Virus record (IMG/VR): IMGVR_UViG_2617270963_000006
Strand: one strand, 5' to 3'
DNA length: 19,276 nucleotides
Source: a virus
Taxonomy: Duplodnaviria > Heunggongvirae > Uroviricota > Caudoviricetes
The notes beneath the pieces are model-generated. The model saw nothing but the letters and a program-made list of their open reading frames with translations, was not told the origin of the DNA and made no database searches. A program made the position numbers and the translations under genes. Below, one piece after another: positions 10,644-18,907 of this stretch (within the stretch, counting starts at the first letter, position 1; every line of letters begins with the position of its first letter).

Positions 10644-10774
10644 ATTCATTACGATATGGGAATTCCCATATCGGGTAAAAACGGTTTGCGGTAAAGCGAG
10701 AGTTAAGCAGAATTGCTGCGGGTGCTTGAGGCTGTCTGCCTCGGGCATGCCACCGTAAGGCAGACAGAGAAAAA

Positions 10775-10860
10775 CCCCAGTTAACATTACGCGTCCTGCA
10801 AGACGCCTAACATTAATCTGAGGCCAATTTCATGCTAGACACATGTAGGTTAGCCTCTTA
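10775..10860 (-). ncRNA. sok: candidate Sok-like antisense RNA of the hok/sok module (position approximate)
   Basis: Inferred from hok-family organisation: the antisense regulator lies opposite the hok leader. No promoter or terminator was pinned down. Confidence 0.3.
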
Positions 10861-10888
10861 CGCGCCGAAAGGCAAGGAGAAGCAGGCT

Positions 10889-11044
10889 ATGAAGCAGCAA
10901 AAGGCGATGTTAGTCGCCCTGATCGTCATCTGTATTACCGTCGTAGTGACGGCACTGGTAACGAGGAAAGACCTCTGCGAGGTACGAATCCGAACCGGTC
11001 AGACGGAGGTTGCTGTCTTCACAGCTTACAAACCTGAGGAGTAA
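10889..11044 (+). CDS. hok: Hok/Gef-family type I toxin (51 aa)
   Basis: MKQQKAMLVALIVICITVVVTALVTRKDLCEVRIRTGQTEVAVFTAYKPEE is nearly identical to chromosomal Hok homologues (HokD/RelF as recalled). In-frame upstream extension from ATG 10832 (track ORF 10832-11044). Terminator follows. Confidence 0.85.
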   Translation: MKQQKAMLVALIVICITVVVTALVTRKDLCEVRIRTGQTEVAVFTAYKPEE

Positions 11045-11111
11045 GAGACCAGGCGAGGGAGAAATCCCTCGCCACCTCTGATGTGTCAGGCATCCTCAAC
11101 GCACCCGCACT

Positions 11112-11134
11112 TAACCCGCTTCGGCGGGTTTTTT
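11112..11134 (+). terminator. rho-independent terminator after hok
   Basis: CCCGC-TTCG-GCGGG followed by TTTTTT. Confidence 0.7.
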
Positions 11135-11253
11135 CACGTACTGTGGTTGTGAATACGATTGGTATTAGGCTATGCTAACAACATTAGCCTGACTAATTTT
11201 GTATTGACTTGATTTTTGTTAAAGAACAGGACGGAGAAGTAAGGGTACACCCA

Positions 11254-11433
11254 ATGAGCTACGCACTAAAAAAACACCCGCGATTGACTATTCCCCCTCG
11301 CGATAAAAGCGTTGTGGCAGCTCCGCGCCCGGCTATCGATGAAAATTGCACTCATCGTGAGCAGGTGAAAAATGCTTTCGATTTCGGTTTTTCTCGTTAC
11401 GAGAAGGCAATGGAAGAACTTTCAAAAGTGTAA
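11254..11433 (+). CDS. putative antitoxin of the Doc-family module (59 aa)
   Basis: Small ORF immediately upstream of the Doc-like toxin, separated by about 18 nt; ATG at 11254 (track ORF begins at a TTG at 11209). Not recognisably Phd-like. Confidence 0.5.
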   Translation: MSYALKKHPRLTIPPRDKSVVAAPRPAIDENCTHREQVKNAFDFGFSRYEKAMEELSKV

Positions 11434-11451
11434 TGATGGGTATTGTGCTCT

Positions 11452-11937
11452 ATGGCTGAGATTGTTGAAGGAGTGCACTACCTTTCGTTTGATGATCTTA
11501 CCGAAATTAATCGCCTTTTAATTGAGCTTCAAACACCAGATGAACCTGTTAGTGTGCTGAGTGTTGATAATTTAAGTTCTTCTCAGTCTCGTCCCAGCAT
11601 GGTTCGATGGTATGAACAGACTAATGACATGTTTGTACTGGCATCAGTATTGATTGAAAGTCTGATTCAGAATCATCCATTTGCTAATGCAAACAAACGA
11701 ACAGCTATGATGGCTGGTTATGTCTTCTTGTTGTTGAATGGCTATGAGTTAACAGCACCAGGCGATGAAATCGTGGAAATGGCAGAGGGACTGGCCTGCA
11801 AAACCTATACTCGAGAAGATCTCGAGAACTGGTTGTGTTATTGGTCTCGTGCGTATGACAGCCGGGAATTATGTAAAACAGGCGCAACTATTGTTTTGTA
11901 TGAAACTATCAAGCTTAAAATAGAACAGCAAAACTAA
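11452..11937 (+). CDS. doc: Doc (death-on-curing) / Fic-fold toxin, about 161 aa
   Basis: Catalytic motif HPFANANKR fits the Doc signature HxFx(D/N)(A/G)NKR. Start is uncertain: ATG at 11452 or TTG at 11443. Confidence 0.75.
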   Translation: MAEIVEGVHYLSFDDLTEINRLLIELQTPDEPVSVLSVDNLSSSQSRPSMVRWYEQTNDMFVLASVLIESLIQNHPFANANKRTAMMAGYVFLLLNGYELTAPGDEIVEMAEGLACKTYTREDLENWLCYWSRAYDSRELCKTGATIVLYETIKLKIEQQN

Positions 11938-11953
11938 AGGTGCTTCTAATGAA

Positions 11954-11976
11954 AATCCGCTTCGGCGGGTTTTGTT
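11954..11976 (+). terminator. rho-independent terminator after the Doc module
   Basis: CCGC-TTCG-GCGG followed by a T-rich tract. Confidence 0.55.
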
Positions 11977-11987
11977 GTATTGGAGTA

Positions 11988-12305
11988 TCATGATATTACT
12001 TGGATCCCGTTTTTCTCTACGACTGAAAGAAGGCGAAGAGCGGCACCTCCCGGCCGTTTTACACCACGTTCCCAGTCTGATATCAGGTTTTTACTGACGT
12101 TGAGGTATCTGGCAAAAACAGGTTGAGACAGATGCTCTCGTTCGCGCAGTGCACGGATCCTTTCCGGAGACATTACCGGCGCTGGCTGGAGACAAGTTTC
12201 ATCGAATTCTCGCATAGTCTGTTTCGTTACTGCGCCGATATCATGAAGCGATTCCATCATTTCATGTACGGATGCAAGCGCATCACTGCGGTAATTTTTA
12301 CTCAT
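11988..12305 (-). CDS. HTH (XRE-type) antitoxin, HigA/MqsA-like, 105 aa
   Basis: C-terminal HTH (LSQPVFARYLNVSKNLISDWERGVKRPGGAALRLL); GGAGG 7 nt upstream; lies directly downstream of a RelE-like toxin ORF on the same strand. Confidence 0.65.
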   Translation of the reverse strand: MSKNYRSDALASVHEMMESLHDIGAVTKQTMREFDETCLQPAPVMSPERIRALREREHLSQPVFARYLNVSKNLISDWERGVKRPGGAALRLLSVVEKNGIQVIS

Positions 12306-12359
12306 TGGGTACCTCCGTAAACTGACCCTGTAGAATCAGTTGTGCCAGTTGTTCATCTG

Positions 12360-12668
12360 TTAGATTGAGTACGTGAGGAGCCCCTTCCGAAATGCACTTT
12401 CCTCAGTAGCGGTTATATTTTCACGTTCATTTTTTGCGTATGCATATACGAAAAAGGCCCTTGTGCCGACGCGATAGAAAATGATTGTGCGATAACCGCC
12501 AGATTTGCCGCCACCGACTCGTGGCAGACGTTGCTTGATAACGCCGTTACCCAGGTTTGCTGAGATAAGCCCGTTATCAGCCTGTTTAACAATTTCGCGC
12601 AGTGACTGGTCGGATATTTTGTTTTTGTGTGCAAATCGCTCAAACCAGGCGTTTTTAAAAATGCGCAT
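12360..12668 (-). CDS. RelE/ParE-superfamily toxin (HigB-like; toxin-first arrangement), 102 aa
   Basis: Segment GGGKSGGYRTIIFYRVGTRAFFVYAYAKNEREN is typical of RelE/HigB-like killer proteins; followed by the HTH antitoxin. Confidence 0.65.
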   Translation of the reverse strand: MRIFKNAWFERFAHKNKISDQSLREIVKQADNGLISANLGNGVIKQRLPRVGGGKSGGYRTIIFYRVGTRAFFVYAYAKNERENITATEESAFRKGLLTYSI

Positions 12669-12772: not shown

Positions 12773-12851
12773 ACGCCAGCAAAATCTGGCGTCGGGATTA
12801 GGAACCCCGGATAGAAACCGCGACAGAGACACGCCGCGAGCGTGTTTTTTA
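12773..12851 (+). ncRNA. candidate small RNA (about 80 nt) with its own promoter and intrinsic terminator, carrying a TTAGGAAC motif
   Basis: Promoter TTGACA (12737-12742), 18-nt spacer, TATATT (12761-12766). Terminator ACACGC-CGCGA-GCGTGT plus T-run at 12829-12851. No ORF. Confidence 0.3.
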
Positions 12852-13013
12852 TTGTCGTATGCACACGCACATCTGAATTATGGTGGGGCGTATAGGGGAG
12901 CTGAAAAGCTCGCCGGTTGGTTTCCCGGTAGTTCCTAACCCTGTACGTCTCGCCACCCGATGATTAGGAACCTGACGGTGGTGATAGTTTAGAAACCACT
13001 CGAGGGCGTCATT

Positions 13014-13685
13014 ATGACAACTCAAGTTTCTGTTGAAACACTCTCCACGATTACTTACAAGCAGATCCCCGTTATCACTACCGAACTTTTGGCGCACCTT
13101 TACGGCACAGAAGCTATTCGTATTCGCCAGAATCACCACGAAAACAAAGGTCGTTTCATTGAGGAAAAACACTTCTTCAAACTTGAAGGTGAAACTTTAC
13201 GTGAGTTCAAGCACAGAGTAGCTTTTAACTACTCTGTGAAAATTGCCCGTAACGTTCGCTCCCTCATCCTATGGACAGAACGCGGCGCAGCCCGTCACGC
13301 AAAAATGCTCGAAACTGATCAGGCGTGGGAGGTATTCGAAAAACTGGAAGACTGCTATTTCAGCCAGGGAAAAACAGCACCAACCGAACAGCAGCCGCAG
13401 ATTCAGCCACAATTCACAGCCGAAGAAATCATCCTCCTTTGCTACATGCAGCTCTGGATGGAAAAAGCCCAGGACCTCAGCAAACACCTGTATCCCATTA
13501 TGAAAGAGCTGAACTCCTCATACACGAACAAGCTGTATGACATTGCGTTTGAGACCATCTACATGGTGACGAAGAACAGAGACGCGCTACTAAGGGAGGT
13601 AACACGTCTCGACATGTCAAGTTCCATTATCCAGCGGGCCATGCCAATGCTGAAAAGCCTGCGGGCAAGACAATTTGAATTCTGA
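13014..13685 (+). CDS. phage antirepressor-like regulator (ORF6N/Rha-type N-terminal domain), 223 aa
   Basis: N-terminal segment (ITYKQIPVITTELLAHLYGTEAIRIRQNHHENKGRFIEEKHFFKLEG) resembles ORF6N/Rha antirepressor domains; GAGGG RBS; terminator follows. Confidence 0.6.
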   Translation: MTTQVSVETLSTITYKQIPVITTELLAHLYGTEAIRIRQNHHENKGRFIEEKHFFKLEGETLREFKHRVAFNYSVKIARNVRSLILWTERGAARHAKMLETDQAWEVFEKLEDCYFSQGKTAPTEQQPQIQPQFTAEEIILLCYMQLWMEKAQDLSKHLYPIMKELNSSYTNKLYDIAFETIYMVTKNRDALLREVTRLDMSSSIIQRAMPMLKSLRARQFEF

Positions 13686-16649: not shown

Positions 16650-16885
16650 GTATCCGTTCAACGGGAATGTTACATACCTCACAATTAAGTCAGTTGAATG
16701 TTGTCTGCCCGGATGAGAATTTGTTAGAAAAAACTGCATGGTGAATCCCCCTGAGCGGAGGGGCGACTGGTGACGGTATAATCTCTGATTATCAAAACGA
16801 GAATGACGCGGGTTTAGTGGCACCGGGCTGAACTCACCGGGAGGCACCCGGCACCATGCAATGGCACATAGCGCCACTCTCCAGC

Positions 16886-16940
16886 CCCTCTCCGGAGGGG
16901 CTTTCTTATGGACAAAAAAGCCCGCGCTGGGAGACGCGGG
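16886..16940. terminator. back-to-back hairpins: plus-strand CCCCTC-TCCG-GAGGGG then T-rich; minus-strand terminator (A-run, then GCCCGCG-CTGGGAGA-CGCGGGC)
   Basis: Read directly from the sequence; orientation of function uncertain. Confidence 0.4.
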
Positions 16941-17134: not shown

Positions 17135-18907
17135 ATGGCATTTAAACACTATGATGTTGTCAGGGCGGCGTCGCCGTCAGACCTTGCGAAACGAATAACT
17201 CAAAAACTGAAGGAAGGGGGGCAGCCTTATGGTAGTGCGCTGATTTCGACAGCTGGTTATGGTGCGGAGTTCATCCAGCCAGTTGTGAGTGAGGGGAGCA
17301 TCTCATCACCAGAGGAGCCAGGCAACCGTCCGACGACCTCAGCGCCTTCTGTTGCGCCAGAATATTACTATGTGATCGCGCTTGCTGGTCAGTCCAATGG
17401 TATGTCATACGGTGAGGGACTGCCATTACCGGATACATTCGACAGCCCTGATCCACGTATTAAACAGTTAGCGCGTCGCAGTACGGTGACACCGGGCGGT
17501 GCAGCATGCAAATATAACGACATCATTCCGGCGGACCATTGTCTGCATGATGTGCAGGACATGAGCCGTCTTAACCATCCGAAAGCGGACCTGTCAAAGG
17601 GGCAGTACGGAACCGTGGGGCAGGGGCTGCATATCGCCAAAAAACTGCTGCCGTTTATACCGGCGAATGCGGGCATTCTGCTGGTTCCGTGCTGTCGTGG
17701 GGGTTCAGCGTTCACCACCGGAGCTGATGGCACATACAGTGACGCGAGTGGCGCCTCGGAGAATTCACCCCGCTGGGGTGTGGAAAAGCCGCTGTATAAG
17801 GACCTTATCGGTCGAACAAAAGCGGCACTGGAGAAGAACCCGAAAAATGTGCTGTTTGCCGTGGTGTGGATGCAGGGGGAATTTGATTTTGGCGGTACGC
17901 CGGCAAATCATGCCGCACAGTTTGGTGCGCTGGTTGATAAATTCCGTGCAGACCTGGCGGATATGGCAGGCCAGTGCGTCGGTGGCTCTGCTGGCGGTGT
18001 TCCCTGGATATGCGGGGACACGACGTATTTCTGGAAGCAGAAGAACGAATCCACGTACCAGACGGTGTACGGCAGCTATAAAAATAAAACGGAAAAGAAT
18101 ATCCATTTCGTACCGTTCATGACCGATGAGAACGGGGTGAATGTGCCGACGAACAAACCGGAAGAAGACCCGGACATTCCGGGTATCGGTTATTACGGTT
18201 CGAAATGGCGTGACAGCTCAGCCACCTGGACGTCACAGGACAGGGCGAGCCATTTCAGTTCATGGGCTCGCCGTGGGATTATTTCCGACCGTCTGGCAAC
18301 GGCGATTCTGAGCTGCGCGGGTAAGTCTTCTGCGTTTGTTAATGGTACTGCCGGGGTGGTTGTTCCAGACAGACCGGTTACCACCTCAGAGTCTGTAATT
18401 TTTTACGATGCCAAAAAAGCTACAGACAATCAGCTGAAACCCTATGGCTGGGACGGTGTGTATGGCAGGGGCACACTGGTTGATGACAGCGGCAATAAAG
18501 CTCTGCGAATTGAGAAAAATAACAGCGCGAAATCCTGGTCAATGTACTGTGATATTGCTGCAGACAAGGCAAAACTTTTACTGGAAAAAGGCGGGGAAAT
18601 TGCTGTCCGGTTTAAAATCCCCGAAAACGTCAATCTTGAGACAACCAGAAACAAGTATGCCTTTGGTTTGTACTGGCGAATAGCGGAATGGCCGGGTGAG
18701 GGTGGTGAAGGCCATCTGAGTTCTTTCTTTGTCCAGACAGATAAAGCCAGTATTAATGTTGCATACCATCATACAGTTAATCAACAAAAAGAACTTGGCA
18801 CGTTTGGCGCATTCGACCATGACTGGCATACGCTTGCATTTAAATTTAAGGGCAGTAACAGCATTAATGAACCGCCCCGGGTTTCCTGGAGAGTGTTTTA
18901 TCTGTGA
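17135..18907 (+). CDS. nanS: NanS-p-type prophage esterase (DUF1737 N-terminus plus SGNH/SASA sialate O-acetylesterase domain), C-terminally truncated and fused to IS sequence
   Basis: N-terminus MAFKHYDVVRAASPSDLAKRITQKLKEGGQPYG and the GQSNG motif (IALAGQSNGMSYG) are characteristic of NanS-p encoded downstream of Q/stx in lambdoid prophages. The frame enters the IS at 18868, so the last 12 codons are IS-derived. Confidence 0.75.
   Translation: MAFKHYDVVRAASPSDLAKRITQKLKEGGQPYGSALISTAGYGAEFIQPVVSEGSISSPEEPGNRPTTSAPSVAPEYYYVIALAGQSNGMSYGEGLPLPDTFDSPDPRIKQLARRSTVTPGGAACKYNDIIPADHCLHDVQDMSRLNHPKADLSKGQYGTVGQGLHIAKKLLPFIPANAGILLVPCCRGGSAFTTGADGTYSDASGASENSPRWGVEKPLYKDLIGRTKAALEKNPKNVLFAVVWMQGEFDFGGTPANHAAQFGALVDKFRADLADMAGQCVGGSAGGVPWICGDTTYFWKQKNESTYQTVYGSYKNKTEKNIHFVPFMTDENGVNVPTNKPEEDPDIPGIGYYGSKWRDSSATWTSQDRASHFSSWARRGIISDRLATAILSCAGKSSAFVNGTAGVVVPDRPVTTSESVIFYDAKKATDNQLKPYGWDGVYGRGTLVDDSGNKALRIEKNNSAKSWSMYCDIAADKAKLLLEKGGEIAVRFKIPENVNLETTRNKYAFGLYWRIAEWPGEGGEGHLSSFFVQTDKASINVAYHHTVNQQKELGTFGAFDHDWHTLAFKFKGSNSINEPPRVSWRVFYL

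Follow-up and report, generated by a model that had tools for sequence, protein, structure and literature searches.

We describe here a two-gene cassette carried in a stretch of DNA of 19,276 nucleotides (nt) from a virus of the Caudoviricetes (IMG/VR record IMGVR_UViG_2617270963_000006), which we refer to in full as the window. The cassette (window 11254–11973) is a self-contained, two-gene 'moron' of temperate phages of Enterobacterales and Pseudomonas, in which a gene for a Doc-family protein of 161 residues is preceded by a small gene coding for 59 residues. We consider it probable that the two form a toxin–antidote pair in which the small protein binds Doc by a helix like the C-terminal helix of Phd (Phd-C), and does so without binding DNA. 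That Doc can be paired with an antitoxin other than Phd is already known; what is new is the specific partner family, which is phage-borne, unannotated and about 50–60 residues long, and which appears to consist of the neutralizing element alone. The principal features of the cassette are as follows.

11254..11433, + strand: small partner gene, 59 aa (WP_000119356, phrog_2208), a RefSeq coding sequence; predicted neutralization-only antitoxin
11284..11307, + strand: codons of the N-terminal motif L11-T-I13-P14-P-R16-D17-K18; I13, P14 and R16 are 91–97% conserved; predicted by AlphaFold2 to be extended (predicted local distance difference test score, pLDDT, ~84)
11353..11424, + strand: codons of the predicted amphipathic C-terminal helix, residues 34–57, HREQVKNAFDFGFSRYEKAMEELS (AlphaFold2 pLDDT 91–95); putative Phd-C-like Doc-binding element
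11434..11451, + strand: spacer between the genes, 18 nt; the doc ATG has no clear Shine-Dalgarno sequence 5' of it
11452..11937, + strand: Doc-family toxin gene, 161 aa (WP_000818160; TIGR01550, Pfam Fic, phrog_577)
11674..11700, + strand: codons of the catalytic motif H75-P-F77-A-N79-A-N81-K82-R83

The Doc-family toxin gene

Doc proteins as a class have EF-Tu (Thr382) kinase activity and arrest growth when expressed, and their motif has a lysine in place of the second glycine of the Fic motif. By its sequence, the 161-residue protein is a bona fide member of this family. It matches the TIGR01550 DOC_P1 profile at 122.2 bits (cutoff 38.65; E=1.3e-35) over profile positions 2–122 of 122, PF02661 (Fic/DOC) at 44.5 bits (cutoff 24; E=2.9e-11), and phrog_577 ('Doc-like toxin'; E=1e-50), a family that PHROGs places in the category 'moron, auxiliary metabolic gene and host takeover'. 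The nearest solved structures are those of the Enterococcus faecalis Doc (9VZC; E=1e-12, residues 6–116) and P1 Doc (3K33; E=1e-4). The preliminary description of this DNA had pointed to a Doc signature, HPFANANKR, and this is indeed encoded by the same open reading frame (ORF) at 11452–11937 that gives the TIGR01550 and Pfam Fic matches; it fits the Doc motif as defined, HxFx(D/N)(A/G)NKR (PMC13034048). H75, F77, N79, N81, K82 and R83 are invariant in 38 homologues of 63–95% identity, and comparison with related cassettes gives a ratio of nonsynonymous to synonymous substitution rates (dN/dS) of 0.13–0.16. The toxin gene is intact and under purifying selection.

The 59-residue partner protein

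The upstream ORF is a real gene under purifying selection, because its dN/dS, where it could be obtained, is 0.05–0.12 (most of the distant pairs have saturated synonymous sites) and because the small genes of its relatives have strong, GAGGG-type Shine-Dalgarno sequences; in the window a Shine-Dalgarno-like AAGGG lies 8 nt 5' of the ATG. The product matches phrog_2208 (E=2.7e-42), which is of unknown function in PHROGs, and it goes by 'hypothetical' or 'bacteriophage protein' in every public source, with the exact sequence present on at least 1000 contigs. It has no match in Pfam, NCBIfam or PADLOC, and the same holds in Pfam for 37 diverse members of its family; sequence and profile searches of the PDB returned nothing relevant, and literature searches, whether directed at lambdoid phages or at phage defence, yielded nothing specific on the module.

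The upstream protein had been described as unlike Phd, and we agree with that view. There is no match to PF02604, the Phd/YefM beta-alpha DNA-binding and dimerization domain, the AlphaFold2 model has no beta-sheet, and comparison of the 59-residue family with P1 Phd by hhalign gives a probability of 1.4% (the Phd query is identical to PDB 3HRY/3K33). The AbrB/MazE swapped-hairpin or beta-dome domain is likewise absent, with no Pfam match and no strands in the model, and hhalign gives a probability of 0.25% against the AbrB-type antitoxin of E. faecalis, represented by a phage-borne copy (in L172). The corresponding value against YhfG is 0.15%, and inspection of the 59-residue sequence finds no (S/T)xxxE(G/N) inhibitory motif of the class I Fic antitoxins. 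On these sequence comparisons the partner lies outside Phd/YefM, AbrB/MazE, YhfG/VbhA and every other described antitoxin family.

An exhaustive hidden Markov model (HMM) search of 1.8 billion representatives recovered 39 clusters at 50% identity. Apart from two spurious hits, these are stand-alone proteins of 38–95 residues, among which those of 82–95 residues look like products of mis-called starts, with an internal methionine at the family start. An iterated profile search gave 68 clusters at 90% identity, comprising small proteins only and no Pfam domain. Neither search found a longer relative that would link the small family to a DNA-binding antitoxin.

Two elements stand out in the family alignment, an N-terminal L-x-I-P-x-R-D-K followed by a proline-rich stretch, and a C-terminal Q-V-x-N-A-F-x-x-x-F-x-R-Y-x-K-A-x-x-x-L-S-K-V, within which A41 (100%), Y49 (89%) and L56 (97%) are conserved across the family. 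From this alignment AlphaFold2 predicts one helix, at residues 34–57 (mean pLDDT of the model 80), and leaves the N-terminal 33 residues extended; the model has no strands and no helix-turn-helix, and none of the ribbon-helix-helix, AbrB, Phd/YefM or helix-turn-helix folds. The predicted helix is strongly amphipathic, with a family-mean hydrophobic moment of 1.11 against 0.46 +/- 0.23 in shuffles (p ~0.005). A Foldseek search of the PDB with the model gave no hits, which is expected for a single helix and is uninformative.

Linkage of the small gene and doc

Type II modules are recognized as conserved, co-moving operons of a small gene and a toxin gene, and the two genes here behave in this way. 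A search with the small protein gave 90 loci, from nine species of Enterobacterales and Orbaceae (GTDB genomes) and 80 IMG/VR viral contigs, and in all 90 a Doc homologue starts 7–18 nt downstream; the reverse search with Doc returned 80 viral loci, every one with a small-family ORF directly 5'. The pairing is therefore found from both search directions and in 169 of 169 fetched loci, many of which are the same contigs fetched twice, so that they represent 52 distinct gene pairs, all with a spacer of 7–18 nt. The pair is present in 125 of 5426 complete Escherichia coli genomes (2.3%), with the full 684 nt covered in each and at most three copies per genome, and the 684-nt block is gapless among the 40 E. 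coli records listed. These lineages include the O104:H4 outbreak lineage, O157:H7, O121:H19 and enterotoxigenic E. coli strains. None of the 125 carriers has the cassette on a plasmid, and plasmid records gave a single match, to a 4-Mb replicon. The pair is also found in the Pseudomonas phages Sirocco and LPPA56, and with the divergent small-family members P0152, P0162 and P0174. Because the linkage of the two genes is tight and universal, a toxin–antidote pair fits well.

Given how short the spacer is, and that no clear Shine-Dalgarno sequence precedes doc, the two genes are probably translationally coupled. The two ORFs of the window share a reading frame, with TAA TGA and five codons between them. 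A read-through or fusion product was considered and rejected, since the shared frame is not conserved and most relatives have doc in frame +1 with spacers of 7–13 nt. The conserved SKV-stop end of the small gene could plausibly act as the doc Shine-Dalgarno sequence in relatives, where it reads AAGGTG, but not in the window, where it reads AAAGTG and lies 22 nt from the ATG.

The same linkage could be explained differently if the small protein were an accessory factor (an adaptor, activator, chaperone or trigger sensor) or a mere co-traveller, with the Doc-like kinase serving as a tool for lytic host take-over. The cassette has no strong promoter of its own and sits in the early-right (nin) operon past a terminator, so that it may be expressed mainly by antiterminated lytic transcription; some distant small-family members lie beside non-Doc genes (YspA/SLOG, a DUF6945 protein) or alone, and the PHROGs category of the Doc family does include 'host takeover'. 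We nonetheless think this explanation unlikely. In their order, size and spacing, and in always occurring together, the genes bear the signature of an antitoxin and its toxin. None of the 125 E. coli genomes has an intact Doc without the small gene, which is what one would expect of a Doc that is lethal by itself, and with a terminator at either end the cassette has the architecture of a moron that is expressed independently.

Two further arrangements were seen among the relatives. In L178 (529–1920) two tandem Fic/Doc genes come after a small-family gene, the first coding for 145 aa (HPFFNANKR) and the second for 242 aa (HCFHNGNKR). In Salmonella phage SW-37 (CP051275.1, ~25546–26190) the matches to the small gene and to doc are partial or split in two, and this cassette may be disrupted.

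A proposed mechanism of neutralization

In the model that we favor, the Doc-family Fic-fold kinase would, by homology, block translation through phosphorylation of EF-Tu, and the 59-residue protein, as a member of an undescribed family, would be its antidote. The genes would be co-transcribed and probably coupled in translation, such that synthesis of the small protein precedes that of Doc and exceeds it. The free protein would be largely unstructured, and its invariant amphipathic helix 34–57 would dock in the concave groove of Doc much as the Phd-C helix of Phd-type antitoxins does, with the N-terminal IPxRDK segment acting either as a second contact or as a handle for degradation or sensing. 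Having no DNA-binding domain, the small protein would act in neutralization only. We infer here the toxicity of Doc, its EF-Tu target, neutralization by direct binding, the mode of that binding, and the lability of the small protein. The biological role may be prophage stabilization, exclusion of other phages, or a function in the lytic cycle.

There are precedents for a helix that is sufficient by itself. The 22-residue peptide Phd(52–73) has picomolar affinity for Salmonella Doc, inhibits the phosphorylation of EF-Tu and restores growth, with F56 and L70 of Phd acting as 'gatekeepers' (PMC9207808). SUMO-fused Phd-C neutralizes a Corynebacterium Doc, and antitoxins with a single domain that only neutralize are known (PMC10440598). 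In E. faecalis the antitoxin does not resemble P1 Phd in sequence, and still it inserts a bent C-terminal helix of the same kind (PMC13034048). When the helix of the 59-residue protein is aligned to that of P1 Phd without gaps and anchored at the C-terminus, F42, F46, Y49, M53 and L56 fall on the Phd hot spots 56, 60, 63, 67 and 70, and both gatekeepers (F56 and L70) are identical; a C-anchored alignment to the helix of the E. faecalis antitoxin pairs the conserved H34 with H54. The alignments score above shuffles at p=0.006–0.05 (0.02–0.03 for P1 Phd), and a control alignment of P1 Phd with the E. faecalis antitoxin scores in the same range.

The likeness to the E. faecalis antitoxin, in which 26 C-terminal residues align without gaps to the resolved helix with H34 on H54 (p=0.006), is also compatible with a partner that is the C-terminal relic of a longer Phd-type antitoxin, within a module that is degenerating and no longer functional. 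Chromosomal toxin–antitoxin loci often decay, and the adjacent RelE/ParE-like gene is frameshifted. We find such a remnant highly improbable, however, as both genes are under strong purifying selection and the Doc motif is invariant, the stand-alone format of 44–62 residues and the N-terminal motif are kept in ~39 clusters (50% identity) from Enterobacterales to Pseudomonas phages, and no longer relative is found among the 1.8 billion representatives.

Several observations weigh against an antidote that docks by a Phd-C-like helix. The best-scoring gapless register against P1 Phd is four residues, or one helical turn, off the C-anchored one, and no profile method supports homology, the hhalign probability against P1 Phd being as low as stated above; the Phd-C likeness of the helix, taken from sequence, is suggestive only. 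The AlphaFold2 model of the Doc monomer is all-helical and of low confidence (mean pLDDT 50.6, from an alignment of 38 sequences all at least 63% identical). A consensus scan (at least 9 of 12 matches) finds no + strand promoter before the cassette in the window. Lastly, the small family is not strictly Doc-bound, because three of the nine distant members whose context was examined (six by contig look-up and three in deposited phage genomes) are not adjacent to Doc. One of these lies between a DUF6945 gene and an unassigned gene, one lies 5' of a YspA/SLOG gene, and the third lies 3' of an asparagine synthase gene with nothing downstream. The three small-family members without a downstream Doc are:

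L180, 1036–1194
L181, 2001–2150
L173, 2354–2542

These members may be orphaned or re-paired copies, and they may leave room for a broader role of the scaffold. We regard as speculative, and rather improbable, the larger proposal that the 59-residue protein founds a free-standing 'linear' antitoxin family without DNA binding, with IPxRDK as a sensor, degron or active-site-plugging pseudosubstrate instead of an inert tail, the cassette as a prophage-encoded switch for abortive infection or superinfection exclusion within an island of three toxin modules, and a mini-antitoxin scaffold re-pairable with other effectors, at which the distant members beside non-Doc genes would hint.

The upstream region and the question of autoregulation

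Two features upstream of the small gene bear on how the module is regulated.

11147..11176, + strand: weak candidate sigma-70 promoter, TTGTGA, 18 nt, TATGCT (8/12 matches)
11167..11190, no strand assigned: inverted repeat AGGCTA (11167–11172) / TAGCCT (11185–11190), with 6-bp arms and a 12-nt spacer

The preliminary description had placed an inverted repeat at 11166–11190 and had put it forward as a candidate autoregulatory operator. A repeat with 6-bp arms is present there, but it is neither above chance level nor conserved. When the 118-nt upstream region is shuffled with its dinucleotides preserved, 34% of the shuffles have one or more such repeats. In the close relatives L014, L018 and L030 the repeat is disrupted by changes that are not compensated, and the other types of upstream region, whose sequences are unrelated, lack it. 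The operator assignment is not supported, and the partner has no recognizable DNA-binding fold.

A canonical, autoregulated type II module could still be envisaged, in which the small protein binds both Doc and DNA (for example as a dimer through its basic, proline-rich N-terminal arm) and represses the operon through 11167–11190. Type II antitoxins mostly do autoregulate, and the N-terminal half of the small protein is basic (six K+R against three D+E) and has a conserved motif. The repeat straddles TTGTGA-18-TATGCT, the best local promoter candidate, and short palindromes occur in other upstream types, such as GGATGT-N4-ACATCC and GATCT-N5-AGATC. We doubt this arrangement. Beyond the shortness of the arms and their frequency in shuffles, no operator is common to the upstream types despite the invariant N-terminal motif of the protein, and neither the AlphaFold2 model (with respect to ribbon-helix-helix, AbrB, Phd/YefM and helix-turn-helix folds) nor Pfam and PDB searches point to DNA binding. 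The homology to L031 and L032 starts at the ATG, which implies that the upstream region is exchangeable. Autoregulation is not obligatory for the type II class (PMC10440598). Because there is no predicted DNA-binding fold and the proposed operator is unsupported, autoregulation is unlikely, and the module is probably not autoregulated through the inverted repeat.

Divergent relatives have better promoter-like sites, TTGAyy...TAnAcT, 70–100 nt 5' of the ATG. The leaders of L066–L090, L003, L004 and L061 (~40–110 nt 5' of the small gene) contain the palindromes CCACT-N3-AGTGG and GGATGT-N4-ACATCC, and the motif GCACTGCCAA / TTGCCAA recurs in them immediately 5' of the Shine-Dalgarno sequence; the window has TTGTTAAAGAAC at the equivalent place. 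These palindromes and motifs could be leader RNA hairpins or operators.

Comparison with known Doc and Fic systems

Three antitoxin super-families have been reported for Doc (PMC3141249). Documented non-Phd pairings include MazE/AbrB–Doc (PMC1626090, PMC13034048) and PanA–Doc (PMC10440598), and Fic proteins pair with YhfG (PMC2701414). The suggestion made from the sequence that this is a Doc toxin with a different class of antitoxin stands insofar as the pairing is tight and the partner matches none of Phd/YefM, AbrB/MazE and YhfG/VbhA, although the principle was already documented.

The P1 Phd–Doc module (PDB 3K33, 3DD7) resembles the cassette in being a two-gene operon of a temperate phage with the small gene first, in having a Fic-fold toxin with HxFx(D/N)(A/G)NKR, and in an antidote that is expected to act by its C-terminal helix, the hydrophobic hot spots, equally spaced from the C-terminus, being F...F..Y...M..L here and F...F..L...N..L in P1. 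However, P1 Doc is distant (phmmer E=1e-4 over 63 residues) and the Doc described here is 35 aa longer, while the partner lacks the beta-sheet DNA-binding domain of Phd/YefM. P1 is moreover a plasmid prophage whose module acts by addiction, whereas the cassette resides in integrated lambdoid or P2-like prophages and is essentially off plasmids.

The chromosomal 'Phd'–Doc pair of E. faecalis (9VZC; PMC13034048) has the closest solved Doc, and its antitoxin likewise shows no sequence similarity to P1 Phd and ends in a bent C-terminal helix of 26–28 residues with a conserved histidine at the helix start. It differs in being 79 aa long and in having at its N-terminus a beta-dome, AbrB/MazE-like, by which it binds a palindromic operator; the 59-residue protein has no such domain. 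The PanA(Phd-C):Doc pair of Corynebacterium doosanense, for which a 'linear neutralisation element' model has been put forward (PMC10440598), also has a short helical element that suffices and that can be attached to different N-terminal modules. In contrast to PanA, the 59-residue protein is without a Panacea (DUF4065) domain, its element being free-standing and accompanied by a conserved, proline-rich N-terminal motif of its own. TasA–TasB, the MazE–Doc composite of Bacillus thuringiensis pGI1 (PMC1626090), is another Doc with a non-Phd class of antitoxin, but TasA has a MazE/AbrB DNA-binding fold that is lacking in the 59-residue protein. In the YhfG–Fic and VbhA–VbhT class I systems a small, mostly helical protein is also encoded 5' of a Fic-fold enzyme in enterobacteria (PMC2701414). 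Here, however, there is no (S/T)xxxE(G/N) motif, and the enzyme is a Doc-type kinase (NKR) rather than an AMPylating Fic protein (GNGR). PaaA2–ParE2 of E. coli O157:H7 offers a parallel with a different toxin, ParE; it is prophage-borne, and its antitoxin of ~60 aa is largely disordered, has no DNA-binding domain and neutralizes via helices, with a third gene, paaR2, providing transcriptional control.

Doc is a textbook toxin, and its neutralization by Phd is a model for antitoxin design, including that of peptide inhibitors. If our reading is right, the partner family, at ~50–60 residues and with no DNA-binding domain, would be a minimal natural inhibitor of Doc, and would offer a clean system for asking what inhibition needs besides a helix and how a toxin–antitoxin pair is controlled without autoregulation. 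The gain would be incremental, as mix-and-match of toxins and antitoxins and neutralization-only antitoxins are both established concepts. Because the partner is annotated only as 'hypothetical protein', automated toxin–antitoxin surveys would list these Doc genes as orphan toxins, and naming the family would correct this.

Cassette boundaries and prophage setting

The limits of the cassette are marked by the following features.

11113..11135, + strand: intrinsic terminator of the upstream hok/sok module, AACCCGC-TTCG-GCGGGTT with a T-run; left boundary of the cassette
11116..11132, + strand: direct repeat, copy 1, 17 nt, CCGCTTCGGCGGGTTTT (terminator core); copy 2 is at 11957–11973
11952..11973, no strand assigned: intrinsic terminator hairpin between doc and the convergent helix-turn-helix gene, flanked by an A-run and a T-run and apparently bidirectional; right boundary of the cassette

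The window and L031/L032 are homologous from precisely the small-gene ATG (11254) as far as the terminator (11976–11978), and we therefore take the unit to be the small gene, doc and the terminator, with an exchangeable leader. Within these limits there is no third gene, and in distant loci the alignable part is the two genes only. On the left, phage matches to the query end at 11133–11134, within the T-run just past the hok/sok terminator hairpin. CCGCTTCGGCGGGTTTT has exactly two matches in the window and none in 200 shuffles, one copy ending the hok module and the other ending doc; lying 841 nt apart, the copies bracket the Doc cassette as a direct repeat. Phages without the cassette, such as mEp460 (L182), share the first copy and then diverge. 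The repeat may mark the recombination joints used in insertion of the cassette.

The 901 bases around the cassette are 100% identical to E. coli chromosomes such as that of strain TOE17, and 99.8–99.9% identical to those of O104:H4 outbreak strains. The matching region is annotated in RefSeq as the early-right region of a lambdoid prophage, in which regulators of cI/cro/cII type, replication genes, a Hok toxin, a 'hypothetical protein', a 'death-on-curing family toxin' and a convergent pair of helix-turn-helix and RelE/ParE genes are followed by ninB, ninE, antirepressors, rusA and Q. Compared with the TOE17 prophage, the window is a mosaic relative rather than an identical copy, with 91–99% identity in blocks and many indels (27 gap openings over 6.5 kb).

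Three toxin-type modules stand side by side in the nin region of the window (10720–12668): hok/sok (Rfam sok match 10720–10894; Hok ORF 10832–11044), the pair of the small protein and Doc, and a convergent, HigBA-like pair on the - strand, with a RelE/ParE-like toxin at 12360–12668 and a helix-turn-helix antitoxin at 11988–12305. Relative to TOE17, the RelE/ParE-like gene has a 1-nt deletion (GGAAGG-GGCTCC) that leads to a premature stop at 102 aa, and the TOE17 copy has another 1-nt deletion near its 5' end; either the toxin has been independently inactivated in both strains, or these are sequencing errors. Further downstream, Rfam matches to isrK (12773–12850) and the C4 antisense RNA (12876–12960) lie just 5' of an ORF6N/antirepressor-type gene (13014–13685), and the region 12773–12960 is a P1/P7-style immI (C4-ant) control unit within a lambdoid prophage. 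Finally, there is a full-length match to the small RNA STnc100 (165 bits) at 16708–16913, 3' of the Q antiterminator gene and 5' of a 590-aa ORF (17135–18907) that occupies the late-leader position, where stx sits in Stx phages.

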